This document shows, one piece after another, positions 2,413 through 47,528 of a DNA stretch of 64,000 bases. This DNA comes from an uncultured Candidatus Saccharibacteria bacterium (GTDB lineage: Bacteria; Patescibacteriota; Minisyncoccia; Phycocordibacterales; Phycocordibacteraceae). Within the stretch, counting starts at the first letter, position 1, and every line of letters begins with the position of its first letter. The position numbers and the translations under genes are program-made. The stretch is from NCBI GenBank assembly GCA_964469405.1, contig CAYXYP010000004.1, forward strand, positions 7,717 through 71,716. Reading direction: 5' to 3'. The notes beneath the pieces were generated by a model that saw only the letters and a program-made list of their open reading frames with translations, was not told where the DNA came from and made no database searches.

Positions 2413-3213
2413 ATGAAAACCGCCAAGAAAGTTAGCTGGGTCGCCGTGTCAGGAGGATTCGACCCTATACATATCGGCCACGTTCGCATGTTTGAGAAGG
2501 CAAAGAAATTTGGCGATAAACTTGTGGTTATCGTCAACAACGATAATTGGCTTCTCGCCAAAAAGGGCTACGTATTTATGTCCGAAAAGGAACGTTGCGA
2601 AATTATTGCATCGTTTCCTTCCGTCGACAAAGTCATTTTGACCTCACATAAGCCAAACGATCCAGACAGAAGTGTTTGTCGCGAACTCACGAAATTAAAA
2701 CCCGCAATATTTGCAAATGGAGGTGACCGCAAAAGTACGAAAGATATTCCTGAAGCCGTCGTCTGCGAGAAGTACGGAATAAAGATGGTCTTTAATATCG
2801 GTCACGGCGGTAAAGTCCAGTCATCCTCGTGGCTTGCGCGCGATGCGAGTCGTAACTTCGCTCGCTCGGTGCGCCCATGGGGTGAATTCTACGGATGGGA
2901 TTCTGGGAAGGAGTGGAAACTGAAGACTCTCTATGTGAAAGCCGGACAACGTCTGAGTCTGCAGTATCATCATCATCGGACCGAACATTGGATTCTCGTT
3001 GAGGGCGATGTAACTGCGACACTACAAAAACCAGGCGGAATCTCAAAGCGTATGTCGCTCAAGAAAGGGGAGGTTATATTTGTCGATCGAAAGGATGTGC
3101 ATCGACTCGAATCGAAGAAAGGTGGAATCGTTGTCGAGATCGGATTTGGGAATTTTGACGAGAACGACATCGTGCGGCTTGAGGACGATCATGGTCGCGC
3201 AGCAGAACAATAG
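2413..3213 (+). CDS. bifunctional-looking protein: N-terminal sugar-phosphate nucleotidyltransferase (cytidylyltransferase-like, HldE-domain-II/TagD type) fused to a C-terminal cupin (type II phosphomannose-isomerase-like)
   Basis: GGFDPIHIGHVRMFEKAKKFGDKLVVIVNNDNWL resembles the (H/T)xGH nucleotidyltransferase motif of the cytidylyltransferase family. The C-terminal SLQYHHHRTEHWILVEGD...VEIGFGNFDENDIVRLED is a metal-binding cupin signature, as in ManC C-terminal PMI domains. Confidence 0.7.
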   Translation: MKTAKKVSWVAVSGGFDPIHIGHVRMFEKAKKFGDKLVVIVNNDNWLLAKKGYVFMSEKERCEIIASFPSVDKVILTSHKPNDPDRSVCRELTKLKPAIFANGGDRKSTKDIPEAVVCEKYGIKMVFNIGHGGKVQSSSWLARDASRNFARSVRPWGEFYGWDSGKEWKLKTLYVKAGQRLSLQYHHHRTEHWILVEGDVTATLQKPGGISKRMSLKKGEVIFVDRKDVHRLESKKGGIVVEIGFGNFDENDIVRLEDDHGRAAEQ

Positions 3214-4552: not shown

Positions 4553-6235
4553 CTAATTCGATGCGGGTACATCATTCCTTTCGAATATAAGGACTTCATT
4601 TGAAGTATATGCTTTATTGAAATATTTATATAGTCGCGCATTGATTTTTGGGTTATCGTTTATGCTCGTCCATACGGTGTCGTTTTTCTGCATGACTATC
4701 CAGCGCGCGTATTTCTCGGGTGTGATGAGCGATTCTTCCCAGTATGGCTTGTTACCGATGTAGATAATGTCCTTCATTTTGATGGGCGAACGAATGATGC
4801 TGATTGTTCGCGCAAAATCATCTGTTAATACCATGCCGCGATCGTAGTGAGATTCAAGCCAGAGTTGTGCATCAGGTATTTTTGCTGTTGCAGATGATAG
4901 GCCTGCAATACCATCTTGCAAGGCAAGCACCGGGGTGAATCCGATGAAGAAGAAAATGCACTGCAACGCGAGCAATCCCCCGATGAGTGTACGACCAAAA
5001 GTCCCACTACGAGAAAACAGATATCCTATGAAGAGCGCAATAACGGGCACCATCATAGCGCCGTAGCGCACATTGAAAAGTGTCCATTCAAAAGTAATCG
5101 GCGTGATGCCTGGTAGGAATATGACCGACTGGCCTAGGAATAAGGTGAGGACATTAAAAAATAATGGGACGAGAAGTACCAATAATATGAGCCATCGGTA
5201 GCGCATTTTTCTACTGAATCCAAACATAAATAGCCCCACAAGTGCGATGCACGCTAGGAGTGTTCCAACGCTCTGCATACTCGTGACCGTGTAATAAAGC
5301 AGCGCTACAAGGATATTGTGGTATGCGGGCAGCTCGCCTCTAACGAGCCAACTATTTTGTTGCGAGCTGGCTGAGAATTGACTGTGAGTGAAATAGAGTG
5401 GATCGCCGAGAATGAGAGCTCCCCATGAGAGCCAGAGGAAAATGCCAAAGAACGCTAATGTTATGAACAATATTTCGCGCCCCTCGAGTCGGTGCCATAG
5501 TTCCAAGAGCGTGCGCTTGCTCTTATGTATGAAGAGAGGCACTCGCTTACTCTGCAATCGAAACCAGGTGAGATTAAATCTCAAAGGAAAATAGTAGAGA
5601 AAGAGCACTCCTGCTTCCATCATCACGAGCGCCCAGCCGTCGTAGCGTGAGAGGGAAGCGCAGAATCCAAATCCTGCCGCTGCGATAAGCATGAGCAGTT
5701 TCGTATCATCGAGGAGAAACCGTATGAAGAAATAGCTTGAGAGAATGAAGAAGACGACCAGTGGGAGCTCGGTCATCGGTGTTGATTGTAGATAGAGGAT
5801 GTTGGGATTCGACATGAACACTATCGCTGCAAAAAAGGCTGCGCTCTTATTTCTGGTGAGAAGGTGAACGAGTTTGTATATATAAAGACTCGAAATAACA
5901 AAAGCAATGCCAGATATGATTGATCCCGCGAGTCCAGTACGCCAAAGGAAATCAAAGTATACGAATGGTATGAGCAATACGTGCGGCAAGGGCAACCAAA
6001 TACCGCCAAGCTGGGCAAAGCCAGGGGTGAGACTGTCTACGACGCGCTTGGCGATGTTGAGGTGCGACTCTGCATCCCCGTAGGCAGCGATGTATCCGTG
6101 AGTAAACGAATATGCCGTCGCGAGTATCGCGACGAATACGGCGAGTATAACGACCCACCACTCGGGAGTGAGCCATATACTCGGACGAAGTATCCATTCA
6201 AAATATTTCTTTCTGATGACAAAGGTGCTATTCAT
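4553..6235 (-). CDS. GT-C superfamily membrane glycosyltransferase (ArnT/PMT-like, polyprenyl-phosphate-sugar dependent)
   Basis: The 560-aa ORF has about 11 TM helices followed by a soluble C-terminal domain. The architecture is typical of GT39/GT83-like enzymes. It overlaps the upstream gene by 8 nt. Confidence 0.6.
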   Translation of the reverse strand: MNSTFVIRKKYFEWILRPSIWLTPEWWVVILAVFVAILATAYSFTHGYIAAYGDAESHLNIAKRVVDSLTPGFAQLGGIWLPLPHVLLIPFVYFDFLWRTGLAGSIISGIAFVISSLYIYKLVHLLTRNKSAAFFAAIVFMSNPNILYLQSTPMTELPLVVFFILSSYFFIRFLLDDTKLLMLIAAAGFGFCASLSRYDGWALVMMEAGVLFLYYFPLRFNLTWFRLQSKRVPLFIHKSKRTLLELWHRLEGREILFITLAFFGIFLWLSWGALILGDPLYFTHSQFSASSQQNSWLVRGELPAYHNILVALLYYTVTSMQSVGTLLACIALVGLFMFGFSRKMRYRWLILLVLLVPLFFNVLTLFLGQSVIFLPGITPITFEWTLFNVRYGAMMVPVIALFIGYLFSRSGTFGRTLIGGLLALQCIFFFIGFTPVLALQDGIAGLSSATAKIPDAQLWLESHYDRGMVLTDDFARTISIIRSPIKMKDIIYIGNKPYWEESLITPEKYARWIVMQKNDTVWTSINDNPKINARLYKYFNKAYTSNEVLIFERNDVPASN

Positions 6236-9200
6236 GGCGACGAATGTATGACAAGAGGAGTACGATTGCTGCGATAACTGCTATCACCACATATATGATG
6301 AGGAAATATTCCATCAAGGTGAGATGGATATACATATACGTCTTGTACACAAAGCTGCCACTTATATTGTCTTGCAGGAGTGGAATATCTTTCAAATAAT
6401 TGTATGTCTTTATTGGAAGTAATATTGCCTCAGATTTTTTTGGAATAGCATTTGATGTTAATGCTCCAAGAAGTGCTATGGCTGATGAGAAGAGGAACAG
6501 TGCGAATGCGGCGATTTTTTTTGGACCAAGAAATCGCCCATAGGAAAGTGCTATACCCACAAAAAGCGCGAGCCATGGCATTGCGGGGATGAGGTATCGC
6601 GGACCATACGCTGACCCTCCCCACGGATCACCCCATGCGCAGTACAGAAATATATTCGTCGCAATGAGAGCAATTGGTACGATATATATAGTACGATAGG
6701 TCTTCTTCCTGCGGAGAACATACATGATGCCAAGGAGCGAAAAAATAAATATCGGCGAGAAAAAGAATAGACCCCGCTCGTCAGAAAATAAGAGGACATA
6801 AAAACTGTTTGGTATGGATTTCTCATGGAAAAATCCAACAGCAGTTTTATCTTTTATTGGGACAGTGCTTGTGGCTGTTGCCGAAGTTGTAGTCGAGGAC
6901 GCCTTCGCAATTGCTGGCGTACTTGTCGCAGTGACAACTTTGTATCCTTTTAACTCTCCTGCAAGATGGCTCCATCCGCCGTAGTACGTGGCATTGTGCC
7001 AGAAATGTAGGCTGGTAACGAAAGCGAATACCACAAATGTCGCAATCGCACTCCATTGTATCGATATCGCAATACCCTCACGAATTTTTTTGAACGAGAA
7101 TGTCGAGACCGCGAGATAGATCATGACCGGTAGCATAAGTACGGCATTTGGGTAGTCGACGAAGATTGCAAGCGCATACGCGAGCCACACATACGCCGCA
7201 TAGAGGAATCTATATCGAGCGTCGCTTTGTGAGAAGCGCCATGCTGCATAAAATGCGGTGACGATAAAACATGCCGTAAAAGCGTTTTGATAGAGAGTGA
7301 TGGCATAGCTCCATGAGGTTGATCCAAATGCGTAGACAAGGACGGCGAATAATGCAGCCCATCGCGGTAATGCGAAGATACGTAGCCCGATGAGATATAT
7401 GAAAACGAGCGTAACGATGCTTATGAGGGATTCTGCAGAAAAGGTAGCAACTTGTCCGAGTCCATATTGCGCACCAAAAAGATAGAAGGGAAGAGTAAAA
7501 TACGAAACACCCGGGGCGAAATAGCTGTCTAATTTTCCATCAGACGACACGCCAACATCAGGATAGGCGATATCAGCCCATGTTTTCGAGAGATTATAGA
7601 CTCCATTCTCAGCCATGTTTGCGACTTGGGTATAGCGGCCACGCTCAGGGGACAATTCAAAAGCGTTTGTTGGTTGGTCTAAATTATTCTTGAATTGATC
7701 TTCGGTTGGATTTCCTGGTGCGCCACGCAACGTCAGTCCGTACATGACGAGACCAAGCATGACGATTGCTATGATGATGGCCGTATCTTTCTTTATAGTT
7801 ATTTTGCTCAGCCAGCTACTTTTTTTGGGAGTTTCTTTCCGCGGCGAGTAATACACTTCTGGTACTAAGGGAATATTCCCATCGGGAAACATCATTTTGG
7901 TCTGACTTGTGTATTCTTTGATCATCCCGAGTTTCATCTCCGGCTCTTCCTCGAAACGAAATACTTCAGTCGCGAGAGGATTGTCATCTTTCGAACCTAG
8001 AACGTTCTTCATATTGTAAGGGAAATCCTTCCACAGAATTACATTTTCGAAATTTTTGAGGCATACATCGCGGACGATCACGTGATCAATGTGTGATTTC
8101 AGAGCGAGCGGGCAGAAAATGACGAATTGTTTCTCATTCGCAATGAGCGCCCTTAATTCTTCCCCGAGGGAACGCATAAGATCTGTGTCGTGGGATGAAA
8201 TTGCTCCGCGGGCGATGTGTAATTGGTGTATCGGATACAAGTGCAAAAATTCCGGAAGAATACGGGAGAGTAGTTGGCGGAACTTACTCGGAGACGTTAT
8301 TTTTCTCCATGAAGCATCGATATATCCAAGATGGTGTGGAGTAATCCCGATACGTGAGTATGCTTTGCGGTCCTCTTCTTTTCGATCAATAAGGAGTTGA
8401 TTAGTATCCGTATACCCACACCGGTACAAGAATCGTAGGACGGAAAGCGTGTATGGTGGCGTCGACGCAGCGGTAAAAACGCTTATAACTTCGACTTGCG
8501 TATGCTTCGACAGGTGCGTAATTAAACCACCCGCCGATAGAGCAGCATCATCCAAGTGTGGAGAAATAAAATAGCACGGGATTTTCCCCGTAATTATTTT
8601 CTGCAAAAAATGAGTGTCGCCCATACTCGCCCGTATTTTTTTAGAGCTTTCTGCCATCTCCCACAATGAAGTAAACTTGTCGGTTTTGTGCAAGCGAACA
8701 TATAACAATATCAGAATAAAATTTATGGAAAAAATAGGGTGCGTGAAAAATTCTTTTACCATTTCCCTGAGTATGAGTCCGGGTGGAATAGCATATGCTT
8801 TTCTGGCCTCATCGCCAAATATATCAATCACAGCCTCTTTGCCTGCAGCAAAACGAGAACTCTGTTTTATATGGTCGCGGAGATTTGTTGGGCAACGAAA
8901 TATCGCTCGAGGATATTTTACGGAAACAAAATGCATTTTGTTTCCCATACAAAACATATACGACATAGCATCATACGGAGTATTGTCTGGGTACTGAATC
9001 GTTGCATATAATTTCTTTGAGAATGCCTGAGCAGGACCGAAACAAGTGTAAAGATTGTTCCCACTTCCTATCGATAAAAATAATTTCTGTTTCAATTCAT
9101 GATTCCAGACAAGAACCTTTTCAGTAAATGTTTTTGGGTTTGAAGGAAGAAGTGCCGCGCTCGTTAGTCCGACGGAGGAGTCATTAATAATTGGGCGTAT

Positions 9201-9533
9201 CAGTTCCTCTACAAAAAACTCATTTTCAGGCAAAATATCCGCATCGAGCATTACCATGATGTCGACTGTGGCATGTCGCAATAGCATATTTTTAGCTCGA
9301 ATGGCTCCGCCTCTTGTCTCAGAGCGGATAAGTTTTACTTTTTCTCCTGCGAACGAACGAACGATAGCGTCTGTCTCATCCGTACTGGCGTCGGATACGA
9401 CCACTATTTCAACTAGGTCTGCAGTATCGATCTTCTGACGAAGGAGTTCAGTCAGAAGCACCCCGATATTTTCGGCTTCATTATATGCAGCTATGGTAAT
9501 AGTGAGTGTAGGTTTCATATTTTTGGCATACAA
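6228..9533 (-). CDS. tri-domain fusion: GT2 glycosyltransferase + LmbE/PIG-L family N-deacetylase + multi-TM GT-C-like glycosyltransferase
   Basis: The N-terminus reads TITIAAYNEAENIG...VVVSDASTDETD...LDAD, a GT-A/GT2 DxD fold. The middle section has ISPHLDDAALSAGGLI, the PIG-L/LmbE HxDD zinc-deacetylase signature. The C-terminal ~550 aa carries about 13 TM helices of PMT/ArnT-like type. Confidence 0.7.
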   Translation of the reverse strand: MYAKNMKPTLTITIAAYNEAENIGVLLTELLRQKIDTADLVEIVVVSDASTDETDAIVRSFAGEKVKLIRSETRGGAIRAKNMLLRHATVDIMVMLDADILPENEFFVEELIRPIINDSSVGLTSAALLPSNPKTFTEKVLVWNHELKQKLFLSIGSGNNLYTCFGPAQAFSKKLYATIQYPDNTPYDAMSYMFCMGNKMHFVSVKYPRAIFRCPTNLRDHIKQSSRFAAGKEAVIDIFGDEARKAYAIPPGLILREMVKEFFTHPIFSINFILILLYVRLHKTDKFTSLWEMAESSKKIRASMGDTHFLQKIITGKIPCYFISPHLDDAALSAGGLITHLSKHTQVEVISVFTAASTPPYTLSVLRFLYRCGYTDTNQLLIDRKEEDRKAYSRIGITPHHLGYIDASWRKITSPSKFRQLLSRILPEFLHLYPIHQLHIARGAISSHDTDLMRSLGEELRALIANEKQFVIFCPLALKSHIDHVIVRDVCLKNFENVILWKDFPYNMKNVLGSKDDNPLATEVFRFEEEPEMKLGMIKEYTSQTKMMFPDGNIPLVPEVYYSPRKETPKKSSWLSKITIKKDTAIIIAIVMLGLVMYGLTLRGAPGNPTEDQFKNNLDQPTNAFELSPERGRYTQVANMAENGVYNLSKTWADIAYPDVGVSSDGKLDSYFAPGVSYFTLPFYLFGAQYGLGQVATFSAESLISIVTLVFIYLIGLRIFALPRWAALFAVLVYAFGSTSWSYAITLYQNAFTACFIVTAFYAAWRFSQSDARYRFLYAAYVWLAYALAIFVDYPNAVLMLPVMIYLAVSTFSFKKIREGIAISIQWSAIATFVVFAFVTSLHFWHNATYYGGWSHLAGELKGYKVVTATSTPAIAKASSTTTSATATSTVPIKDKTAVGFFHEKSIPNSFYVLLFSDERGLFFFSPIFIFSLLGIMYVLRRKKTYRTIYIVPIALIATNIFLYCAWGDPWGGSAYGPRYLIPAMPWLALFVGIALSYGRFLGPKKIAAFALFLFSSAIALLGALTSNAIPKKSEAILLPIKTYNYLKDIPLLQDNISGSFVYKTYMYIHLTLMEYFLIIYVVIAVIAAIVLLLSYIRRHE

Positions 9534-10717
9534 TCTCTATATACGGTATCCATTTTCCGGGCGACATCTTTCCATGATTGTCCTTTGCCAAAAATGGCGT
9601 TCGCCTCTTTTATTTTCTGTACGCTTGTTGCATTGCTCGGATCAAGAAGCCACAAAACTTTTTCGGCAACTTTTTTATCATCGTGTACCGGAAGACAAAA
9701 ACCATTCACGCCGTCTTTGATAAGTCCAGGGAGGCCATACACATCGGATACAACACAGGGAATCCCTTGGCTCATTCCTTCGCGTACGACATTGCAACCA
9801 CTCTCCCATAATGCCATGTGTACCATGGCAACGGCATGTCGCATGAGATAATATTTATCAATTCCGCGGACGACACCAGTGAATACAATACGCTTTCCAA
9901 GCCGAAGCTCTGCTATAAGGTTTTTCAGTTTTTGTTCATATGTCGCATCTTGCAATTGACCAATGACCACAAACTTCATGTTCTCCGGTAGATGCGCGAG
10001 TGCTCGAATCGTTGTTTCGATATTTTTGATCGGGTACACTCGTGCGACTTGAATGATATATCTGCCGTACGTTGCAACCGCTTTTTTAACATCTGCGCTC
10101 GCTAAAGCGTCAATATCTCCATACGCTTCATCTTCGAGCCCGTTGTCTATCAAGTGAACCTTTTCGGGCCTAATATATTTCACTTCTTCCGTTCGTTCCC
10201 ACTCCGATACTGCGCGCACGCCATCAACGGTGGCGTTTATAAGCCATGCACCAAGTGTGTGAGTGTATATCTTTTTTACGAAACGACTTACGGGAGGGAA
10301 CATTGACCATTCGGGACTAAAACCACCATGCGGGGTGAGTATAAGCGCAAATTCTTTCTTCCCAATTATTTTAAATAAAAGCGCATAAAAGAGATACCGC
10401 ACAAAGAATATGTCAAAATTATGAAGTGCGATGACATCAGTCTCTCCCCAATGTAGTTCAGGAGAAAATCCGAATACGCCACTCTCGTATCTTTTTACGC
10501 GGAGGCCATTCATGATCTCTTCTGCTACGAGTATATTTTTCTCAGTGTATGTATCTCTGAGTGTATGTATGGTTACATCCCAGCCGAGCGTATTCTGCAA
10601 GGCGACATACGTCTGCATAATGTTATTCTCGATACCTCCTGCAACGGGGTAGAAATACTTCGTGATAACGTCCACGTGTTTTTTTGGCACATTTACGAGA
10701 GTAGTCATGGCTGTCAT
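9515..10717 (-). CDS. GT4 (GT-B, group 1) glycosyltransferase
   Basis: The C-terminal EGMSQGIPCVVSDVYGLPGLIKDGVNGF matches the EX7E-type GT4 donor-binding motif. The ORF is 400 aa. It overlaps both neighbours by 19 nt and 4 nt. Confidence 0.8.
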   Translation of the reverse strand: MTAMTTLVNVPKKHVDVITKYFYPVAGGIENNIMQTYVALQNTLGWDVTIHTLRDTYTEKNILVAEEIMNGLRVKRYESGVFGFSPELHWGETDVIALHNFDIFFVRYLFYALLFKIIGKKEFALILTPHGGFSPEWSMFPPVSRFVKKIYTHTLGAWLINATVDGVRAVSEWERTEEVKYIRPEKVHLIDNGLEDEAYGDIDALASADVKKAVATYGRYIIQVARVYPIKNIETTIRALAHLPENMKFVVIGQLQDATYEQKLKNLIAELRLGKRIVFTGVVRGIDKYYLMRHAVAMVHMALWESGCNVVREGMSQGIPCVVSDVYGLPGLIKDGVNGFCLPVHDDKKVAEKVLWLLDPSNATSVQKIKEANAIFGKGQSWKDVARKMDTVYRDCMPKI

Positions 10718-12450
10718 TTTATTATTACAGCAGTTGAAATCACCGCATATCGCGGATCATTAAACAAAAGATCCTCATCGGCGAGCTCTTCTTTTGCGAG
10801 CCCAACCCAAAACGCTTGTCCAGAAAGGACATTCCCATACGAAGAAACAAGTATATGTTCCGGTGAGACACATTTCCCAAAAAGATATTTGAGCGAGGTG
10901 GGAGTATATCTCCAATAGCATCGTTCCGGATTTTGCATTACTCCCATAGACGAGACGGTGACGAGAAGCACACCTCCTGGTTTCAATATGCGAACAGCTT
11001 CCCGCGCCGCAGACTCGTGATCGTCAATGACCCCGAGCGTGTGCGTAAGAATGATGCAGTCGTAGGTATTTTCCGGAATATGACTCATATTTCTCAAATC
11101 ACCATACAAATTCGCCCTCTTATTTTTTATATCTACATCAAGCACATCACTTTTTGTCACTTTGGCACCACCGAAACGGGCGGTGTAGTCGTTAGTACAT
11201 ATTTCAAGACAGTAACCACGTATATATGCCGCATTAGTTTCTAAAAATAACTCGATGTAGTGACGATCAATCGGAGTGCCTCGGTCAAAACCAAATTTTT
11301 TGCTTATTGGGAAAAGGGAGTATTTTGATTTTGGTCGAAAAAAACGCATGAAAAGAGTACGAATTCTCCCAAGAAGAGAGACGAACATGTCTATAATGGT
11401 CGACCTTGGATAGACCGATTGGCTTCGCAAGGCATCTCCCGATAAATCATGAGATATATCACTCCACTCATATACAACAGCATTAAAGCATCGAAAGTTT
11501 AATTTGAGGCGTTCTTCACTCTCTGTATCGTGGAGTAATTGGACGGCGGATATTGCAAAAAGCGCACGAAATATTTTTGCAGTTTCTTGCGATTTGCCAT
11601 ATAGCGATGCGACACCATTTAGAACGACCTTTCGAGATTCATCGTTATCCCACTCCCAATGCAATGAGTTGGTAAATATTTGGAGCAAACTTGTAAAAGC
11701 ATTATCGCCAAAATCAATGATAACAACCCCTTCTTTGTTTACGAGGACATTCTCAAAATGAAAATCTCGATGAACTAACCCTTCATGCCAATGTGAGGCA
11801 AGAGGTGGAACTGCTTGCAGAACCATCGGTATTGTTCGTATGAGAGTCGGTATTTCTCGAGGATATCGGATAGCGGCGTATACAAGACTGACACCATAAG
11901 CAAATAGCGTGTCGGATAGTGTACGTCTGGGAATCTGGCTTTTTTCAGAGGCGTTGAATTGGTCACCAATATATTTCCAAAAATCAATTGCGAGATTAAA
12001 GGTTTCGTATTTTTTTGAAAATGGAGTGACATCTTTTAAATGTATACAATTTTCTATATACTCAAAGACCGCCAGAATATGCGTAGGAGATATTTCCTTT
12101 TCTAAAAGGCGAGGGATGCATATGTGCCGGTATTTCTCTTCAAGTGAGGACCCAATGCGATCCAGCACCCCATGGAGAAGCATGTACAACCGAATCTCGT
12201 TCATGAGTTGGTAGTATTCGTATGTTTGAACTGGCCCCCTCCATATTTTGATAAGAACTTTGTGTCCCTGATTATTTTCGTATACACCAATACCGCGCGG
12301 AGAACTTACGAGAACGGTGTGCAATCGAAAGCCATTGTATTCCGCAGGAAGTGATGTGTCAGAGTCAATTCGCTTGAACAAGCTTACTACGCTAGTTTTT
12401 AATACTAGAGATATGTGCCAGAAAATGTTTGTTTGCTTTATAATAGTCAT
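10714..12450 (-). CDS. fusion of a protein-kinase-like/aminoglycoside-phosphotransferase-like kinase domain and a class I SAM-dependent methyltransferase
   Basis: HRDFHFENVLVNKEGVVIIDFGD gives an HRD catalytic loop plus a DFG motif. The C-terminal DCIILTHTLGVIDD...ILKPGGVLLVTVSS is a Methyltransf_11-type fold. Confidence 0.65.
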   Translation of the reverse strand: MTIIKQTNIFWHISLVLKTSVVSLFKRIDSDTSLPAEYNGFRLHTVLVSSPRGIGVYENNQGHKVLIKIWRGPVQTYEYYQLMNEIRLYMLLHGVLDRIGSSLEEKYRHICIPRLLEKEISPTHILAVFEYIENCIHLKDVTPFSKKYETFNLAIDFWKYIGDQFNASEKSQIPRRTLSDTLFAYGVSLVYAAIRYPREIPTLIRTIPMVLQAVPPLASHWHEGLVHRDFHFENVLVNKEGVVIIDFGDNAFTSLLQIFTNSLHWEWDNDESRKVVLNGVASLYGKSQETAKIFRALFAISAVQLLHDTESEERLKLNFRCFNAVVYEWSDISHDLSGDALRSQSVYPRSTIIDMFVSLLGRIRTLFMRFFRPKSKYSLFPISKKFGFDRGTPIDRHYIELFLETNAAYIRGYCLEICTNDYTARFGGAKVTKSDVLDVDIKNKRANLYGDLRNMSHIPENTYDCIILTHTLGVIDDHESAAREAVRILKPGGVLLVTVSSMGVMQNPERCYWRYTPTSLKYLFGKCVSPEHILVSSYGNVLSGQAFWVGLAKEELADEDLLFNDPRYAVISTAVIIK

Positions 12451-12453: not shown

Positions 12454-15400
12454 TTATGTTCGATTTACCAAAGAAGCTTCGTGGTGGGATATAAATTCCC
12501 GACTGGAAATTGCCTCAATAAATTTTTGACTGCTCTTGCTCCACTCAAAATTCTGTGACCATACAATCGCGTATCTTGAGAGAATCTTCCGGAGTGTCCC
12601 ATCAACGAGCACTAGAATTATCTTTTCTGCGAGAGCTCCAGTATCACCATACGGGACCAGGAGTCCCGTCTCGCCATCGCGTACAGAATCGCGAAGGCCG
12701 GAGACATCTGACGCAATGACGGGCGTACCGCAGGCATTCGCTTCAATCGTAGTTATTCCCCAGCCCTCAATCATAGATGGAGTGACAAAAACCCAGGATG
12801 TTCGCAAAATATCACGCTTCTCTTCCTCGGATACCTTTCCACGAAAAGAAACTGAATTTCCGAGGTCGAGTTTCTGCGTCAATCTCTTCAAATTATTTTC
12901 TTCCTCACCATCCCCAGCAATAATAAGCTCTGCATCGGGAACACGAGCCAGAACTTCTTTGAATGCCTCGATGAGCACATGGACAGACTTGTGTTCTTTC
13001 AGTCTTCCAACATAGGACACTGTTGGCACGAATGCTTTCTTTCCAGGAGTTAGGAAATTTGTATCAATGCCCGGATTTACCACCTGAATATCTTTGGTCG
13101 TTATGTTGAGCGTCTCCATAGCCTGTTTTGAAGAATCTGACACCGTAATGAAGTTGCAGTTGCGATACACAAGCGGCATAAAATCTCTTTCGAGGAAGCA
13201 AGCAAAACTGGAAAGTGGCCACACGAGCGATTTGCGGAATACGTCTTGATGAATGTGGTGTACCAGGCAATACACGGGTTCTGTAGCATACAGCGGAGTA
13301 AAGAAGGGGATACCATTTTCACTATCTACGATAACGTCGAATGTCCCTCTGAAATGAAATAGATAATAGAGCGAGGCGATGACATAGGTCGCATAGAATC
13401 CACCACGGCGTATGATGCGGACACCATCAGTCTCTCCGTTTGGGGGTAAATGACCGTCATTACTTGTGAACAGGGTCACGGAGTGACCATCCTTTACCCA
13501 CCGTGATGCAAGAGCTTGCACGTATGTCTCGGCGCCGCCGGCAAACACACTTTTGGTATCGCGCCAATTGAAGACAAGAATATTTTTTTTGCCCGGAATA
13601 TGAGGGCGTGCGGGAGGCAATGGTTTATAGATAATAAGGATGTCATAGAGGTTACGATAGGCGTAGAGAAGCTGGTTGTAGAAAATATGTGAAGCCGCAA
13701 TAATTAGGAAATATATGATATTAAACGCTACTGCCGTCTGCACAAATACCGCTACGGAAGAATGGTAGAACACCATACTTGTAAGCATGGAGAGAGATAA
13801 CACTAAAGATATGGCGGGGAAAAAATATCGTTCCCGCGCAAGCTGGTAGAGAACGACGGTTGTTGCAAGCGTGAATAATGTCATGGCGATAGAGTAGGGA
13901 ATGAGATACGGGACAATCATCAGCGCCGATGCGCCAAGAAGAAGCGGTGCAAGAAACCACCCGAACAAAGAGAGGCCGAGCCCTGCCGAAATGCTGAGGA
14001 ATGCCGTACCGACAAAAATCTTCCCAAATTCTTTCTCCGGATCTCTGCCTTTTCCCATCGCACGACTCACCATTGACACGATAAATACATTGAGAAGAGA
14101 ACCGAAAAAATAAATCATTTTCCCGATGGTGGAGAGGAGAGCATAGACGCCGGCGTCATAGGGACTTAAATAATGTTTCGCCAGAATTACGTCGACGCTC
14201 AGAACCATCGCAATCGAAAATCCCTTCATGAGTGATGCTGCATAAAAATCAAGCGAAAATTTCGTTTCCGTCTGGGCCGTTCTTTGGGCAGCTGGAATTT
14301 TTCGGTACACGAGGGCGGCGCAAGCGGTTGAACCAGCCCAACCAAGAAAGATAGAAATAGGTATGGCAAGTGAAGAGAATTCGTATGCACTCATGGAGAC
14401 GAGAATCATGGCTGCGGCGAGTCTCGAACTGGATTCAAAAAGGGCTAGAAACGCAAGCATGCCGAAGCTCCACATGCCTTGCAAGTACCCGGCGTTATAC
14501 GCATTAAGCGATCCGAAGAAAATCGCTGGAGCGAAGGCTGCTATTACCACGTATCCTGACATGTGGAAGAAATCGGAGATAAACGGGACGGAAGCAAACC
14601 ACACGATGCTCCCAATCATGCTCGGAATAAAAATGTGTAGCCATGTGTGACGGAAAAAGAGACTTCCTTTTCCGGGAGCGATTCCTTCAAGATACGAAAC
14701 GGTGTGGTTGAGTGTGGTGCCGACACCGTTAACAAAAAGATTGAGCAGATACACAAACGTGCTTACGAGCGTGATAGTGCCGAAGTCTTCGAAATTAAGA
14801 TGTCTGCCGAGATACGCATTGAATGCAAAGTTGATGATGTTTGCGACTACCGAAGACATCACCAGGAGTCCTGCGCTTGAAGTGATGAATTTTCGTGTCT
14901 TTACGAACCATGTTTCTTTTTCGGTATTGTCACTCAGAATATGGATCAGCTCTGGTTCGTTGTCGGGTACAGCATTTGCCGCCATATCGATGGATGCCGG
15001 TAACGCGGGATTCTTTACGGGTATGAGTGTCAAGACGGTCCGTGGAGGCTGTTTCGCCATGACGGCTTTCATATCGAAAGCGATTTGCGGTACTGGGACG
15101 CGCATCGTCCATGGTATTTGCGGGATAATTTTCACCGGGGCGAGGTGAAGCCCATGAACTGTCTTCGCCCAGTAGTGTGGCTTCACAATTATTTCGTACA
15201 GCGCTTGCCATGCGGCGAAACTCATACCGAGCCAATAGAACGGGATGAGGAAAACGTATTTGATGAGTCCGTCGTATTCGCGCTTCACACAACCGATCAT
15301 GTAGTAGTAGAGATAGAGGAAGTTTCCAAATACAAGCGAAAAGACTCCGATATAGAGTATCGGTCCCGGGAAGAAGGCCTCTATAAAGAGGCCGATCTTT

Positions 15401-16662
15401 GCGCGGAAAAGAAAGTAACAAATCGTCGTCACCCACATGATGGGATTGATGAAAAGCGAAAGTATCTTTCCGCCAACGATGAGCTGGAAAAGAAAAAAAT
15501 CTTTTCCTTTCCCCGCTGTGAAATACTCCTGCGGATTACGCATGTGCACGAAATAGGTCTGGATGTAGCCTTTGATCCACCTGCTGCGCTGGTTGTACCA
15601 ATTCAGGACGTCCGAGTTGGCCTCCTCGTGTGTGGTCGAATCGACGATTGCCGTTTTGTAACCGCGCTTGGCGAGGCGCATACCGAGGTCACAATCCTCG
15701 GTGACGTTAAACGCATCCCAGCCCCCGAGCTCACGGAGCGTGTCTCTGCGGAAATGGTTGGAAGTTCCGCCAAGCGGAATAGGCGCCCCGATTGATTGAA
15801 AGCCGGGGAGAACCAAGTCGAACCAGAGTGAATATTCCGCGCTAAAGAGTCTCGTGAGAATGTTCTGTTGCGGATTATAGAAATTGAGTTTGGCTTGGAT
15901 GCAGGCCACGCTCGCATCTACTTTTTTGAATGCGAGAACCGCCTTCTTAAGTTGGTCGACTTCGGGGACATCCTCGGCGTCGTATATAACGACATACTCG
16001 CCGCTCACATAATTAAGGCCGTAGTTCATCGCCTTCGGCTTGGTCTTCGGCTTTGAGTGCGGCACGACCACGATGTGGAAGTGCTCGGGCAGGGAGGACG
16101 TGCTTATTTTCTGTATGGTTTCCGTATCGTTCTCCTCGAGAAGAAAAAGGACCTGAAGTTTCTCGTGCGGGTAATCAAGTTTCTGCATCGCTTCGACGAA
16201 CTGAGGTACCACCTGCCATTCTTTATAGAGCGGACAGAAGATCGTGTAGGTCGGGCAGTTCTCGTCGCGGAGTCCCGCTATCTCTGATGCGCTGATGCGT
16301 ATTTCGGGGAGCGCTTTGTAGCTTTGGAAAATAATGAACGCACTAAATAGAAGATCGAAAAAATAGAGCACGGTCATCACGCCGAACAGCGCGATGGCGG
16401 TCATCTGCCAATTGAGAACAAATGCAAATGCAAGGAGTCCGATAGCTGTTCCTAAAAATATTTTCTGATGTCTAAGTAAATTGAAAAACGCTGATTCTGT
16501 CACATGCAAATCTGCATGATGAATGAATTCGGCACCCTTGTAATGGAAGCCCGTCTGCATCGTGTTAGACATAATGGGCGACATGTGTGGATCATGCTCC
16601 GGCCCGAAGATGAAACCACGCACTTTCCGGGACAGGTTCGTGTACGCATCAACGTATCTCAT
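12454..16662 (-). CDS. 1402-aa tri-module protein: processive GT2 synthase (cellulose/chitin/PNAG-synthase-like, QxxRW) + about 12-TM Wzx/MOP-flippase-like module + C-terminal GT4 glycosyltransferase
   Basis: The N-terminal domain has DAEDVPE, TEDCDLGMRL and QRSRWIKG (D, D, D, QxxRW) flanked by TM helices. The central ~450 aa is highly hydrophobic and polysaccharide-biosynthesis/flippase-like. The C-terminus reads EGWGITTIEANACGTPVIASDVSGLRDSVRDGETGLLV, a GT4 signature. Confidence 0.75.
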   Translation of the reverse strand: MRYVDAYTNLSRKVRGFIFGPEHDPHMSPIMSNTMQTGFHYKGAEFIHHADLHVTESAFFNLLRHQKIFLGTAIGLLAFAFVLNWQMTAIALFGVMTVLYFFDLLFSAFIIFQSYKALPEIRISASEIAGLRDENCPTYTIFCPLYKEWQVVPQFVEAMQKLDYPHEKLQVLFLLEENDTETIQKISTSSLPEHFHIVVVPHSKPKTKPKAMNYGLNYVSGEYVVIYDAEDVPEVDQLKKAVLAFKKVDASVACIQAKLNFYNPQQNILTRLFSAEYSLWFDLVLPGFQSIGAPIPLGGTSNHFRRDTLRELGGWDAFNVTEDCDLGMRLAKRGYKTAIVDSTTHEEANSDVLNWYNQRSRWIKGYIQTYFVHMRNPQEYFTAGKGKDFFLFQLIVGGKILSLFINPIMWVTTICYFLFRAKIGLFIEAFFPGPILYIGVFSLVFGNFLYLYYYMIGCVKREYDGLIKYVFLIPFYWLGMSFAAWQALYEIIVKPHYWAKTVHGLHLAPVKIIPQIPWTMRVPVPQIAFDMKAVMAKQPPRTVLTLIPVKNPALPASIDMAANAVPDNEPELIHILSDNTEKETWFVKTRKFITSSAGLLVMSSVVANIINFAFNAYLGRHLNFEDFGTITLVSTFVYLLNLFVNGVGTTLNHTVSYLEGIAPGKGSLFFRHTWLHIFIPSMIGSIVWFASVPFISDFFHMSGYVVIAAFAPAIFFGSLNAYNAGYLQGMWSFGMLAFLALFESSSRLAAAMILVSMSAYEFSSLAIPISIFLGWAGSTACAALVYRKIPAAQRTAQTETKFSLDFYAASLMKGFSIAMVLSVDVILAKHYLSPYDAGVYALLSTIGKMIYFFGSLLNVFIVSMVSRAMGKGRDPEKEFGKIFVGTAFLSISAGLGLSLFGWFLAPLLLGASALMIVPYLIPYSIAMTLFTLATTVVLYQLARERYFFPAISLVLSLSMLTSMVFYHSSVAVFVQTAVAFNIIYFLIIAASHIFYNQLLYAYRNLYDILIIYKPLPPARPHIPGKKNILVFNWRDTKSVFAGGAETYVQALASRWVKDGHSVTLFTSNDGHLPPNGETDGVRIIRRGGFYATYVIASLYYLFHFRGTFDVIVDSENGIPFFTPLYATEPVYCLVHHIHQDVFRKSLVWPLSSFACFLERDFMPLVYRNCNFITVSDSSKQAMETLNITTKDIQVVNPGIDTNFLTPGKKAFVPTVSYVGRLKEHKSVHVLIEAFKEVLARVPDAELIIAGDGEEENNLKRLTQKLDLGNSVSFRGKVSEEEKRDILRTSWVFVTPSMIEGWGITTIEANACGTPVIASDVSGLRDSVRDGETGLLVPYGDTGALAEKIILVLVDGTLRKILSRYAIVWSQNFEWSKSSQKFIEAISSREFISHHEASLVNRT

Positions 16663-17395
16663 TTTGTGCGGTAGGAAGAGCGCTATAGCGTCCCAGAATG
16701 CGGTTCCACGATATGTGTGCGAGCTCGCCGAGCGTTTGGAAATAAGAAACAGCGGTAACTTTGGATCCGGCGGGATTGTCCCATACGACGGGAAGTTCCT
16801 TTATCTTGAAGTCATTTTTGCGAGCGATGACTAAAACCTCGATATCAAATCCAAAACGCTCGATAGTCTGTCGCGGGAAAATCGCGTCGGCCGCCTTTGC
16901 GGAAAATAGTTTGAATCCGCGCTGAGTGTCTTCAATTCCCGGCACCGCTAAGAGCTGTACGAGCATGTTTGCACCTGAACCGAGTATTCTGCGGTGCCAG
17001 CCATTATGCTCGGATACGTCGGTGGTATCAGTGATGTGTATAGAACCGATAGCAACGTCGAACCCATTTGAGAGAGAGCGCATGAACATATCGAGGTGTG
17101 AGATATCTACTGAGTTGTCAGCGTCCATAAACAGTCGATAGTCGCCCGTCGCGGCGAGCATTCCGCGCTTGACGGAGAAACCCTTTCCGCTATTTTTTTC
17201 ATTTATTAGAACCTGCAGGTTTTTTATTCTTGACGCATAGCGTCCGGCCACAAAGGCGGTGCCGTCAGTCGAGCCATCGTCGACCACGATCACTTCGACG
17301 GGCATGTCATTATGGGCGAAATATCGTTCGATGCTCTCGAGTGTATTCCCGATACGCGTCGCTTCGTTGTAAGCCGGTATGACTATGGAAAGCAT
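16649..17395 (-). CDS. GT2 polyprenyl-phosphate glycosyltransferase (Dpm1/GtrB-like)
   Basis: MLSIVIPAYNEATRIGNTL...VIVVDDGSTDGT...DADNS is present. I place the start at the ATG at the complement of 17393-17395, just after the GtrA stop. The ORF track extends it to 17455. Confidence 0.75.
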   Translation of the reverse strand: MLSIVIPAYNEATRIGNTLESIERYFAHNDMPVEVIVVDDGSTDGTAFVAGRYASRIKNLQVLINEKNSGKGFSVKRGMLAATGDYRLFMDADNSVDISHLDMFMRSLSNGFDVAIGSIHITDTTDVSEHNGWHRRILGSGANMLVQLLAVPGIEDTQRGFKLFSAKAADAIFPRQTIERFGFDIEVLVIARKNDFKIKELPVVWDNPAGSKVTAVSYFQTLGELAHISWNRILGRYSALPTAQNEIR

Positions 17396-17399
17396 ATTT

Positions 17400-17813
17400 T
17401 TATCCATGAGATTTTTTGAACACCAGGAATCGATAGCCGAGGAAGTTCCATCCAAGCACGACGAAGGTGCCCATCAATGCTCCAATGTTTGCCGCAAGTT
17501 GCGGGGAAGCCTGCTGCACGAAGAGGGTGAAGACGGCAAACGAAATTGATACGTTTATCCAGAAGCCTACCGCGGATATGATGAAGAAAAGTAGTGGCTC
17601 TTTCACGTTTGTCGGCGTGTCGTGCCTAAAGACCCACCATTTATTCAATATGTAGCTATTGGCGACAGCCGCGAGGAAAGAGATGCTCTTGAATACGACG
17701 AAAAGTTCACCATGGACACCGGTACCAAAAAAGTATATTAAAATGTTGAGCACCATTAAATCGAGTGCTGTGTTAAGCACTCCGACACAGAAGAATTTAA
17801 AAAATGTATACAT
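17400..17813 (-). CDS. GtrA-family small membrane protein (polyprenyl-P-sugar translocation partner of GtrB-like GT2)
   Basis: The 137-aa ORF has 4 TM helices. FFKFFCVGVLNTALDLMVLNILIYF is GtrA-like. It is the first gene of the operon. Confidence 0.7.
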   Translation of the reverse strand: MYTFFKFFCVGVLNTALDLMVLNILIYFFGTGVHGELFVVFKSISFLAAVANSYILNKWWVFRHDTPTNVKEPLLFFIISAVGFWINVSISFAVFTLFVQQASPQLAANIGALMGTFVVLGWNFLGYRFLVFKKSHG

Positions 17814-18206: not shown

Positions 18207-19559
18207 ATGGACAGTGCTGCGAAGATGACTATAATGAATTTTGTGGTAACGCTCTCTCGCACATTTTCAGTAACACTCGCAAGTATTTTTATTTTCAGCA
18301 TAGTTTTGTTTGGTGGGGCGGGGAACTCTCTCGCACAAACCACTTCCACCTCACAGCCGGGTGTCGTCCTTCTCGCAACGGTAAACGTCGTCGATGTAAA
18401 GATCATCTCTCAGGAGGGTAGTACGTTCCGTATTTCTTTCAATCTCACAAATCGTCAAGGTATACAGACAGGAGTTAAATATGGCGTTCGGCTCGTATCG
18501 AACGTTAAAGGGGCAGCTATCGCCGACGAAAAAGTATATCCAGCGACACTGACACTTGCGGAGAACAGCTCTGTGATCAAAGAAATCACCTACACAGCCC
18601 CAGAAAACTTAAGTGGCGCCTACACGCTCTACATCACCAGCAGAAATGAAAGTGGTCTCCCTCTTGCCCTTACTCCAGCTGGCAAGGTTACTCTCACTGC
18701 AACTACAAAAGGTCTTGCGGTCGATCCCACCTCCTGTTATTTGAAGATCGTAGGTGAAAAAGGCAGCCCTCACTACAATCTCGTTCAAGGTGTCGATATT
18801 GCAAGTACTGAAAATCTAGTGCTGACCTGCACAGCGACTAATGGAGAGTCGACAGCGCTTTCCGCAGTACCGTCTTTCGAAACTCACTATCGCACCATAT
18901 ATGGAGCCATAGTTAAGCAAGTCGGAGGAGATTCGACACCGATTTCTTTTGCTGCAGGTGAGAAAAAGACTTTTTCCATCACACTTCCTAAGGCGGGAGA
19001 ACCTCAAGCATATGACGTCTCGACCGTGCTCAAGTCGGGGAGTATTTCATCAAACGCCATCATTGCTCACTACGTGATCAGCGGATCAAGTGCGACCGTG
19101 CAAAGTATTTCTCTCGACAAGAATTTCTATATGAAAGGTGATACCGCAACACTGTCTTTCGCATGGTCGCCATCAGCTGATGACTTCCCTAACTCACGCA
19201 TCGGGGAAAGCTCCCTCTCTGTTACGAGCGCTAGTGTGTCTATGACCGATGCGAGTGGAAACGCCTGTATAACGCCGACTCAAAAGTCTCTGTCAGGGGG
19301 TGTCAAAATAAACATCGCGCTCCTTCTCGAGAAGGACTGCAATAATCCTCATGTATCCCTGTCGCTCGTAGACGCAGCAGGGCACCCTCTCGCTCAGAAG
19401 GATCTAGCTATTATCAGTCCTGCGACAGCTCCTGAGGCGACATCGTCGACATCATCTCCTGTCTCTGTGCTCATTGCTCTTGGCGTCATTGTGATTATTG
19501 GATTGGGAGCATACATCATGCACCGGAAGAAAGAAGTCGTAATACAACAACTACCATGA
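18207..19559 (+). CDS. cell-surface protein with N-terminal signal/anchor and C-terminal TM anchor, hypothetical
   Basis: The 450-aa ORF starts with a hydrophobic N-terminus. The C-terminus is SVLIALGVIVIIGLGAYIMHRKKE, a TM helix plus a basic tail. The body is Ser/Thr-rich and beta-rich. Confidence 0.55.
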   Translation: MDSAAKMTIMNFVVTLSRTFSVTLASIFIFSIVLFGGAGNSLAQTTSTSQPGVVLLATVNVVDVKIISQEGSTFRISFNLTNRQGIQTGVKYGVRLVSNVKGAAIADEKVYPATLTLAENSSVIKEITYTAPENLSGAYTLYITSRNESGLPLALTPAGKVTLTATTKGLAVDPTSCYLKIVGEKGSPHYNLVQGVDIASTENLVLTCTATNGESTALSAVPSFETHYRTIYGAIVKQVGGDSTPISFAAGEKKTFSITLPKAGEPQAYDVSTVLKSGSISSNAIIAHYVISGSSATVQSISLDKNFYMKGDTATLSFAWSPSADDFPNSRIGESSLSVTSASVSMTDASGNACITPTQKSLSGGVKINIALLLEKDCNNPHVSLSLVDAAGHPLAQKDLAIISPATAPEATSSTSSPVSVLIALGVIVIIGLGAYIMHRKKEVVIQQLP

Positions 19560-21497: not shown

Positions 21498-22436
21498 ATG
21501 GAATATTTGCCTGAATTTAAAAAGAACTTTGCAACCGCGTATCTCGCGGAGGAGTATGAACGTCTCGATAAAGAGGCTGCTGAGGCACTTGGAGCCGCAG
21601 GAGGGGATGCCGAGCTTATGCGAATGGCGAAGGAAGACGAGTCGCGCGTCCGCGCGCGACAGGCGGGCATTCTCACCGAAATAGAGCAAATCCTTGCGAA
21701 AGAAAAAGAAGAAGTCGCTCGACCGAGTTCGGTCGTGATGGAGCTACGCGCTGCTGCGGGTGGGGACGAAGCGACCATCTTCGCCACCGATCTAAAAGAA
21801 ATGTATCAAAAATATGCTGAACGTCGTGGATGGAAGACGCGCGTTGTCGATGATCTCACTATTGAGATCATAGGTGCTGATGCGTACGATGCTCTGCGCT
21901 TCGAAACTGGCGTACATCGAGTCCAGAGGGTGCCACTCACTGAGAAGTCGGGGCGTATTCATACCTCCACCGCCTCAATAGCTGTATTGCCTATCCGCTT
22001 AAAATCGAAGGTAGATATCAATCCAGCCGATATCCAGATGGAATTTTCGAGAAGTGGCGGAGCAGGAGGACAGAATGTGAACAAGGTCGAGACGGCTGTT
22101 CGGCTCGTCCATATACCTACCGGAATTGATGTACGCTCTTCTTCCGAGAGAAGTCAGTTGGCGAATCGCGAAAAGGCGATGCAAATTCTATCCGCGAAGC
22201 TTGAACAATTGCATGAAGAACAGGAAGCGAAGAAACATGCGGCAGAGCGTAAAGAACAGATAGGTACGGGCGATCGTTCGGAAAAGATTCGCACGTATAA
22301 CTACCTGCAAGATCGTGTTACCGACCATCGGCTGAAGGAATCCTGGCACAATCTGCCGAAGATCCTCGCGGGAGGCATAGATGACATTATCGATGCATTA
22401 CACGCGGCAACCACCTCGCCAACCCATTCCGGCTAA
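21498..22436 (+). CDS. prfA: peptide chain release factor 1
   Basis: It has the GGQ motif [11 protein letters not shown]. The codon-recognition tripeptide is PLT ([14 protein letters not shown]), which is the RF1 P-x-T type. The ORF is 312 aa. Confidence 0.85.
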
Positions 22437-41978: not shown

Positions 41979-42422
41979 TCATGCTGGTCTCGCAAATACT
42001 TCTGCAATGAGGATTTTGTGCCGACCAAGAAGATCGGGTATCTCCAGGACTTTGGCAGTTGGGAATGCTTCGATCAACAAAGTTTGGTCGTCCTCTCGGC
42101 CGAATTTGTGTCGCGTGTTGAACTTTTTTTGCGTTACCTTTGCGATGCAGAGATGGGGAATATATAAAGCGCCATTATGTCGGTGCCACGAATGAAACGA
42201 CATTTCTTCCTGAAGGAGGCGGATACCAGTCTCTTCTCTGCATTCCCGTATTGCTGCGGCGGCAACACTCTCACCTTCTGGGTTAATATGACCTCCCGGC
42301 AGTTTCCAAAAAGGTTTCTTAAACCCCTCATTCTTAACCAGAATGATTTCCCCATTCGGTGAGAGTATGCACGTCATAACCGATCCTTTATCCGGACCTA
42401 TCTTTTGTGGGTCCATAGACAT
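41979..42422 (-). CDS. NUDIX hydrolase
   Basis: The Nudix box is [25 protein letters not shown]. The start is ambiguous; the ORF track extends to 42473 into the prfB promoter. Confidence 0.7.
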
Positions 42423-42516: not shown

Positions 42517-42522
42517 TCTTCG

Positions 42523-47524: not shown

Positions 47525-47528
47525 TTGT

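Follow-up and report, generated by a model that had tools for sequence, protein, structure and literature searches.

A kinase–methyltransferase fusion in a Candidate Phyla Radiation glycan operon as a candidate bifunctional glycan-modifying enzyme

The DNA analysed here, a stretch of 64,000 nucleotides (nt) from contig CAYXYP010000004.1 of an uncultured Candidatus Saccharibacteria bacterium (the window), carries a glycan operon in which one open reading frame (ORF) fuses a kinase-like domain to a class I S-adenosylmethionine (SAM)-dependent methyltransferase domain. The fusion is real and conserved, and a frameshift artefact is excluded, given that the single ORF recurs in other clusters. It is not a member of the WbdD family of capping enzymes, with which it shares superfamilies only. 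We hold with moderate confidence that it is a bifunctional, cytoplasm-facing, glycan-directed kinase and methyltransferase, which would act on a lipid-linked product before MOP-type export. That its substrate is a glycan seems likely to us, because the fusions and the synteny of both protein families point to glycan machinery.

Architecture of the fusion and its two protein families

A preliminary description of this DNA had proposed one protein made of an HRD...DFG kinase-like domain and a class I SAM methyltransferase, and this assignment stands: both halves pass their Pfam gathering cutoffs, namely APH (PF01636; residues 211-270, E 7e-7, 29.7 bits against a cutoff of 23.2) and Methyltransf_11 (PF08241; residues 429-496, E 1.4e-8, 35.6 bits against 21.2), the motifs are intact, and the ORF boundaries agree exactly with the coordinates (10714-12450) and the kinase-N-terminal order given there. 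Further kinase and methyltransferase models of Pfam match more weakly. The kinase domain comprises N-lobe strands (residues 41-71), helix alphaC (77-102), and a helical C-lobe, and its AlphaFold model reaches a predicted local distance difference test score (pLDDT) of 85-94. It carries the motifs V-H227-R-D229-F-H-F-E-N234 and I-D246-F-G248, with Lys68 (VLIK) upstream and Glu85 in alphaC; K68, E85, H227, D229, H231, N234, D246, and G248 are invariant in a family alignment of ten sequences. All catalytic kinase residues are intact and, judged by its sequence, the kinase half is catalytically competent. The PF01636 match, the lysine, the HxDxxxxN and DxG motifs, and the bilobal fold place it in the APH/protein-kinase-like superfamily.

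A word-indexed search of 5.8 billion proteins returned full-length relatives of the fusion at 35-100% identity (P0001-P0006, P0009, and P0010; P numbers denote proteins and L numbers loci), one of them labelled Patescibacteria, together with two stand-alone versions of the kinase (P0007 and P0008). The same uninterrupted ORF is present in six further clusters (P0002-6, P0009, and P0010). The N-terminal 23 residues are kept across the family alignment, which supports the long start. Possibly, the helix of residues 1-28 (maximum Kyte-Doolittle value 1.23) is a membrane-proximal element; it is not a transmembrane segment, and the fusion as a whole has none. The linker between the two domains contains a single amphipathic helix at residues 350-370 (hydrophobic moment ~0.5-0.6).

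Relatives of the kinase half are numerous. When 1.84 billion representatives were scanned exhaustively with the kinase profile (HMMER), 773 clusters passed E<1e-3 and 499 passed E<1e-10 (the ~500 clusters referred to below, defined at 50% identity), and most members are stand-alone proteins of 310-360 amino acids. Among 147 representatives of this wider family, Lys68 is a lysine in 142, D229 is kept in 141, N234 in 145, and D246 in 146, and the full K/D/N/D catalytic set is intact in 133. The partners found in ten longer members are glycosyltransferase family 2 (GT2), Polysacc_deac_1, GT2 plus deacetylase, a MatE/MOP flippase-like domain, and a second copy of the kinase; several of these longer proteins give no Pfam kinase match. 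The family is often invisible to Pfam and annotated as hypothetical (e.g., L016 6433-7362; P0163, P0202, and P0215). Whatever its chemistry, a sizeable APH-like kinase family is hereby defined, which annotation often misses and which almost always occurs with one type of glycan cassette. Tandem kinase-kinase fusion proteins also exist (P0121, P0122, P0124, and P0131), and in some loci the main kinase is immediately preceded by a second, divergent paralog (L004 6966-7979; L007 8959-9972). This hints at either two successive phosphorylations or a partner that is a pseudokinase.

Compared with the PDB by Foldseek, the kinase matched a range of APH-type enzymes about equally well (E 5e-8 to 1e-6, probability 1.0, TM-score (TM) ~0.5, 9-17% identity), including NahK, AmiN, the Mph macrolide 2'-phosphotransferases, LicA, APH(2''), APH(3'), and FN3K, as well as YihE. 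NahK is the top match (13-15% identity, TM 0.36/0.53), indistinguishable from 40 other APH-type kinases; the AmiN structures 6sui/6sum/6sv5 are among the top matches, and YihE, a Ser/Thr kinase according to the WbdD paper (PMC3482155), is number 5. Single-sequence and profile searches of the PDB found neither WbdD nor a specific relative, only generic catalytic-loop and methyltransferase-motif matches, and those of the kinase profile were limited to the catalytic-loop region of many protein kinases.

The METHYLTRANSFERASE half (residues 381-578) shares 42-50% identity with methyltransferase domains from more than 100 clusters, which are fused, usually C-terminally, to GT2, glycosyltransferase family 4 (GT4), PgdA-type deacetylase, pyruvyl-transferase, or FkbM domains; hundreds of domains with GT2, GT4, PgdA, or pyruvyl-transferase partners match at 45-50% identity. 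The signature of this unnamed glycan-cassette family reads P-x-S-x-x-F-G-F-D-R-G-x-P-I-D-R-x-Y-I-E ... V-L-E-I-g-D-x-x-Y-T ... D-V-L ... L-T-Q-T-L ... L-K-P-G-G-V-L-L, and, for the fusion domain, the family signature runs G-F-D-R-G-x-P-I-D-R-x-Y-I-E ... L-E-I-x-x-x-x-Y-T ... S-D-V-L-D ... L-T-H-T-L-G-x-I-D-D ... G-Q-A-F-W-V-G; all 23 invariant columns of the family are present in the fusion. Motif I is non-canonical (L-E-I-C-T-N-D-Y-T), a family-wide trait. Cys418 in this motif (LEIC) was considered as an inactivating change and rejected, the column being Gly in only ~55% of the family. The domain was modelled with a pLDDT of 93.8 and a predicted TM-score (pTM) of 0.90, and both its gathering-cutoff match and its Rossmann-like seven-strand fold identify it as a class I SAM methyltransferase. 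Foldseek matched the model to more than 1000 class I methyltransferase structures at E<1e-3, the sugar O-methyltransferases RebM and AtmM among them, with no specific nearest neighbour, and a PDB profile search found no solved structure that belongs to the family. Clustering with ubiquinone/menaquinone methyltransferases, which the preliminary description had named as evidence that would speak against its proposal, is not what we see: the relatives are GT2, GT4, deacetylase, and pyruvyl-transferase fusions, NCBIfam UbiE/MenG models reach 12-29 bits against cutoffs of 158-420 (NCBIfam kinase matches are likewise far below threshold), and the Pfam Ubie_methyltran match barely passes (21.5 against 20.1), over no more than 61 residues.

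Methyltransferases coupled to the kinase form a distinct sub-clade (THxLGxIDD...GQxFWVG) with ten discriminating positions, including H473G, Y476D, R522Y, E526K, R575V, and L548W, and also C414. H473G and Y476D lie just after strand beta4, and the residues altered at this site suggest that the acceptor of the kinase-coupled enzymes may have changed.

Conserved coupling and genomic context

The placement of the fusion within a glycan operon, also part of the preliminary description, is borne out: the gene is packed tightly between glycosyltransferase genes (Table 1). On a single strand, the order is small GT2, 1402-amino-acid protein, fusion, GT4, the GT2, PIG-L, and membrane protein, and PMT_2; the gene of the 1402-amino-acid protein stops 3 nt before the fusion, and the start of the downstream GT4 overlaps the fusion stop by 4 nt (ATGA). 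Over its full length, the 1402-amino-acid protein is 56-65% identical to an ortholog in the related locus L005, whose central block matches Polysacc_synt and Polysacc_synt_3 (Wzx/MOP; PF01943/PF13440), and its own membrane block is assigned as Wzx/MOP-like because of 56% identity to this ortholog. Its N-terminal GT2 domain contains the Q-R-S-R-W motif (processive-synthase).

The order [GT2-MOP-GT4], kinase-methyltransferase, [GT4 with or without deacetylase, with or without GT2] recurs around P0006 and around P0010, which is 35% identical, and in all close loci the kinase/methyltransferase pair has a GT4 gene after it. A kinase-family gene and a giant GT2-(membrane)-GT4 protein share a cluster in every related locus checked. 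The giant protein directly precedes the kinase gene or its divergent paralog in L001-L004, L006, L008, L009, L012, and L016 (as two adjacent genes rather than one polypeptide in L003 and L009), is separated from the kinase by one gene in L005 and L011, and lies elsewhere in the cluster in L017; this survey of positions left out L007 and L010. With the kinase encoded separately (P0007 and P0008; L004 and L005), the next gene encodes a methyltransferase of 231 amino acids from the same sub-clade. The closest otherwise-fused methyltransferase relatives, P0011 (deacetylase-methyltransferase) and P0012 (GT4-methyltransferase), come from the same type of cassette, and each of their clusters holds a kinase-family gene missed by Pfam. 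The pair is fused, adjacent, or in the same cluster in nine of nine distinct loci examined with the methyltransferase sub-clade. Within the cassette, it is the kinase that stays constant, and the methyltransferase has been added in one branch. A separate pattern scan of reference genomes turned up no more than 9 loci, a number that does not allow statistics.

Two GT2-methyltransferase fusions sampled from outside the Candidate Phyla Radiation (CPR), one from Pontibacter and one from a metagenome contig, adjoin ABC2_membrane (Wzm) and a Wzt of 411-430 amino acids, with Wzt_C present in the Wzt of L019, and neither locus holds a kinase-family gene. Wzm together with Wzt(+Wzt_C) is the genomic signature of glycans whose terminal cap the transporter recognises (PMC11231755). 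The same glycosyltransferase cassette also accompanies kinase-family genes on contigs of metagenome-assembled genomes labelled 'uncultured Gammaproteobacteria' (L008 and L012), and weaker relatives occur on Chloroflexi/Anaerolineae contigs (L013 and L014); these labels may reflect mis-binning, or the cassette may have spread to lineages other than the CPR. On CPR glycan kinase/methyltransferase systems, a literature search returned nothing relevant.

Table 1. The fusion, its parts, and the other genes of the operon (positions in the window)
Feature	Position	Strand	Description
Whole fusion ORF	10714..12450	-	578 amino acids, ATG start; kinase-like domain, linker, methyltransferase domain
N-terminal residues 1-28 (NIFWHISLVLKTSVVSLF)	12367..12450	-	moderately hydrophobic conserved helix; model confidence low
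APH/protein-kinase-like domain, residues ~30-337	11440..12363	-	Pfam APH, AlphaFold model, Foldseek
Lys68 of V-L-I-K, ATP-phosphate-binding	12247..12249	-	invariant in family
Catalytic loop H227-R-D229-F-H-F-E-N234 and metal-binding D246-F-G248	11707..11772	-	invariant
Inter-domain linker, residues 338-380	11311..11439	-	low-confidence region; not coiled coil
Class I SAM methyltransferase domain, residues 381-578	10717..11310	-	Pfam, family alignments, model, Foldseek
Small GT2, operon head	16649..17455	-	268 amino acids
Upstream partner	12454..16662	-	1402 amino acids: GT2, MOP/Wzx-like membrane block, GT4
Downstream partner, GT4 glycosyltransferase	9515..10717	-	400 amino acids
GT2, PIG-L de-N-acetylase, and polytopic membrane block	6228..9533	-	1101 amino acids, same operon
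PMT_2 (GT-C type) membrane glycosyltransferase	4553..6235	-	same strand

The protein at 6228-9533 (-) starts with TTG, and its long polytopic C-terminal block has no Pfam match. As an idea only, the PIG-L protein, PMT_2, the GT4 proteins, and the small GT2 recall the assembly logic of glycolipids of the glycosylphosphatidylinositol or phosphatidylinositol mannoside type. At the edge of the glycan region, 2413-3213 (+) encodes an unusual fusion of 266 amino acids, in which a cytidylyltransferase-like domain (PF01467) is joined to a mannose-6-phosphate isomerase C-terminal/cupin domain. Divergent from the operon are two adjacent ORFs of 450 and 496 amino acids (18207-19559 and 19556-21046, +) without a Pfam match. 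Elsewhere, the window holds two genes for class I peptide-release factors (PCRF and RF-1 domains; 21498-22436 and 42343-43398, +), the first of them short with 312 amino acids, and, with an EamA transporter after it, a stand-alone LPG_synthase_C protein (22556-23521, +); this domain forms the C-terminus of aminoacyl-phosphatidylglycerol synthase, whose membrane flippase part is missing here.

Proposed activity and competing explanations

As a glycan-directed enzyme, the fusion would act in two steps. The N-terminal APH-fold kinase would use adenosine triphosphate (ATP) to phosphorylate a sugar hydroxyl of a lipid-linked glycan built by the adjacent GT2-Wzx-like-GT4 megaprotein and the GT4, and the C-terminal class I methyltransferase would methylate the same intermediate with SAM. 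The methyl group would most probably go to the newly added phosphate, giving a methyl-phosphate that blocks this position, and the MOP/Wzx-like module would then export the modified glycan. Tentatively, we propose the methyl-phosphate product on the grounds that fusion or adjacency is recurrent, the sub-clade is distinct and altered near strand beta4, and two precedents exist; that it would terminate the chain is more doubtful.

Several observations weigh against this proposal. The inter-domain geometry of the fusion model is unreliable (pTM 0.55). A crude heptad score finds 0 coiled-coil residues in the fusion as against 117 in WbdD (473-595), the positive control, and no Wzt bearing a carbohydrate-binding module (CBM) occurs within the operon, the window, or the related loci L001-L005 (Pfam analysis of called genes). 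The discriminating residues of the sub-clade comprise no clear gain of a basic phosphate-binding cluster; in WbdD, this cluster is R203/H132/H133 (PMC3482155). No methyltransferase of this kind lies within 10 kb of the distant kinases (L008-L012, 24-29% identity), and its domain occurs in 0 of the 147 kinase representatives. Given that most members of the kinase family are without a methyltransferase partner, the core role of the kinase would need no methylation. Most members of the methyltransferase family, for their part, work without a kinase, and their default acceptor is presumably a hydroxyl.

The main rival, which we hold to be less likely, is that the two halves make independent decorations, with the kinase placing a phosphomonoester on one sugar, the methyltransferase O-methylating a hydroxyl elsewhere, and the fusion serving co-localisation. 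In a variant, the phosphomonoester could even serve the next glycosyltransferase as a 'go' signal, a role that phosphate has in the case of the eukaryotic glycan kinases POMK and FAM20B. The kinase-free majority of the methyltransferase family and the lack of a clear gain of basic residues in the kinase-coupled clade both agree with two decorations, as does the position of the mostly methyltransferase-free kinases between the giant glycosyltransferase protein and further GT2 genes: where neighbours of distant kinases were scanned (L008, L009, L011, and L012), the kinase is still found just downstream of the giant GT2/GT4 protein, and where downstream genes were scanned (L008 and L009), further GT2 genes follow. 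However, fusion or immediate adjacency, always kinase then methyltransferase, recurs down to 35% identity, H473G and Y476D set the sub-clade apart and suggest a changed acceptor, and both known methyltransferase and kinase pairs of glycan clusters make methyl-phosphate (PMC3482155, PMC11231755).

A role in a small-molecule precursor pathway is improbable. The kinase would then be an anomeric sugar kinase similar to NahK/AmgK that supplies nucleotide-sugar synthesis, or an ethanolamine/choline kinase that works with a phosphoethanolamine N-methyltransferase to make phosphocholine as a decoration of the glycan. While NahK tops the Foldseek list, which also contains the choline kinase LicA, the APH-type matches are nearly equal and modest, and none is specific. 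Phosphoethanolamine N-methyltransferases are among the PDB profile matches of the methyltransferase (E 2.5e-6 to 5e-3); these matches, however, span the generic motif region only. Nucleotidyl-/cytidylyl-transferase genes do lie nearby (2413-3213 in the window; L001 and L005), but no transferase of the LicD or EptA type came to light in the cluster, and the repeated GT2, deacetylase, and flippase fusions of both families would be hard to explain for soluble precursor enzymes.

We give still less weight to a regulatory protein kinase, similar to YihE/SrkA or to eukaryotic-type protein kinases, that would control assembly by Ser/Thr/Tyr phosphorylation of the glycosyltransferase megaprotein. The H-R-D...N...D-F-G motif does resemble that of eukaryotic-type kinases, the PDB profile matches are protein-kinase catalytic loops, and YihE stands high among the fold matches, yet the similarity is limited to ~30-60 catalytic-loop residues, there is no activation-segment/APE region, and the C-lobe is helical as in APH. 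The wider family, moreover, has D-[LF]-[QE], an APH/choline-kinase-like trait, rather than DFG, and the fused methyltransferase would be left without a rationale. An antibiotic resistance enzyme, that is, an aminoglycoside or macrolide phosphotransferase placed in the glycan operon by chance, is very improbable: it would account for the Pfam APH match and the fold matches to APH(2''), APH(3'), and Mph, but not for glycan-machinery synteny and fusions conserved across hundreds of family members, and the kinase resembles no resistance enzyme specifically (9-17% identity).

Comparison with known systems

WbdD was the model on which a capping role had first been suggested, and the comparison here is with the O-antigen terminator of E. 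coli O9a and K. pneumoniae O3. Like the fusion, WbdD combines a kinase of the protein-kinase-like superfamily with a class I SAM methyltransferase in one polypeptide, and both are encoded among the GT4 genes of a glycan cluster and match the broad APH and Methyltransf_11 models. Specific homology to WbdD was not recovered in either half by profile or structure comparison. Using WbdD of E. coli HS as reference (L015:22966-25092, 708 amino acids, between wzt and wbdA), BLASTP gave an E of 0.11, hhalign of the family profile A1 a probability of 8% over 34 columns at the catalytic loop (HxD...DFG) only, and hhalign of the methyltransferase profile A3 a probability of 0.1%. Neither the top 60 profile matches and the top 50 Foldseek matches of the kinase nor the top 50 Foldseek matches of the methyltransferase model include WbdD.

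The two proteins also differ in layout. WbdD starts with its methyltransferase (residues 1-210; Methyltransf_31/25/11), followed by the kinase (211-459; APH/Pkinase), a long C-terminal coiled-coil ruler, and a membrane/WbdA-binding end (PDB 4AZS family; PMC3482155), whereas the order in the fusion is reversed, with kinase, linker, and a final methyltransferase domain. The ruler of 250 residues has no counterpart in the fusion, whose longest modelled helix comprises 26 residues. The structural neighbours of the fusion kinase are APH-type, those of the WbdD kinase Src-like (PMC3482155). Finally, the cluster of the fusion contains a MOP/Wzx-like module rather than Wzm/Wzt-CBM, and its host is a CPR bacterium, not a producer of lipopolysaccharide. 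The CTP synthase encoded in the window shares 86-95% identity with proteins labelled Candidatus Kaiserbacteria, Parcubacteria, and Paceibacterota, by which the host is Kaiserbacteria-like. The sole ATP-binding cassette (ABC)-2 pair in the window (46718-48281, +; an ATPase of 268 amino acids and an ABC2_membrane permease, no Wzt_C) was considered as a hidden Wzm/Wzt and rejected, as it is 34 kb away from the fusion, has a short ATPase, adjoins the CTP synthase gene pyrG, is unlinked to the glycan operon, and has no counterpart in the related loci covered by the Pfam analysis of called genes (L001-L005). The proposal of a WbdD-style capping enzyme therefore survives in part: the pairing and the glycan-machinery families stand and leave the analogy plausible, while homology, ruler, and Wzt-CBM do not. 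A length-regulated linear polymer, which had been expected to follow, finds no support, coiled coil and Wzt-CBM, the two hallmarks of known terminator systems, both being missing.

The fusion shares its fold, the HxDxxxxN...D motif, and PF01636 with the APH-type kinases (NahK, AmiN, Mph(2'), APH(2''), LicA, and FN3K) and YihE. It differs from the small-molecule enzymes among them in that its context and partners belong to glycan assembly rather than to salvage or resistance, and in having no specific nearest neighbour. The preliminary description had taken a kinase of the small-molecule type as grounds for giving up the capping role. The neighbours are indeed of this type, which is not decisive, given that the proven methyl-phosphate terminator of K. 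pneumoniae O7 has an AmiN-like kinase (PMC11231755).

This O7 terminator, the N-terminal part of ORF6, has been proven by experiment and is organised as methyltransferase, AmiN-like kinase, CBM, coiled coil, and two GT2 domains (PMC11231755). Compared with its published description, the fusion resembles it in the fold of its kinase, which is APH/AmiN-like rather than WbdD-like, and ORF6 shows that methyl-phosphate capping is possible without a kinase of the WbdD type (PMC11231755). In ORF6, however, the methyltransferase comes first, the kinase (223 amino acids) goes unrecognised by domain databases whereas that of the fusion (~300 amino acids) passes Pfam APH, and the protein belongs to an ABC-transporter pathway; it further contains fused GT2 polymerase modules in addition to the CBM and coiled coil, the latter two of which are not found in the fusion. 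GT2-methyltransferase fusions such as P0024 from Pontibacter lucknowensis resemble the fusion in their methyltransferase, which is of the same family (42-50% identity, shared G-F-D-R-G-x-P-I-D-R-x-Y-I-E) and from which the kinase-coupled clade differs at C414, G473, D476, Y522, K526, and W548. Their loci lack a kinase and adjoin Wzm/Wzt(+Wzt_C), and in function they would be akin to terminators that add a methyl cap, such as WbdD-O8 (PMC3482155).

Methyl-phosphate caps are made by two unrelated types of methyltransferase and kinase pair (PMC3482155, PMC11231755), and by analogy it is plausible that the fusion carries out WbdD- and O7-ORF6-like chemistry through an independent, convergent fusion without a coiled-coil ruler. 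In its most far-reaching form, which we consider unlikely, this would make the fusion the third independently evolved methyl-phosphate glycan-capping enzyme and the first outside Gram-negative O-antigen systems, ruler-less, coupled to Wzx/MOP, and built on an unnamed glycan-kinase family (~500 clusters) that is fixed in a CPR-wide GT2-flippase-GT4 cassette. Should the pair make a phosphate or methyl-phosphate mark, it would offer a first way to approach by biochemistry the essentially uncharacterised surface glycans of CPR/Patescibacteria, as well as rare and useful biocatalysts in the form of regiospecific glycan kinases and phosphate methyltransferases. The modification of glycans by a kinase and a methyltransferase would then have been invented at least three times, and, set beside WbdD and the O7 terminator, it would no longer be tied to ABC export and coiled-coil rulers.

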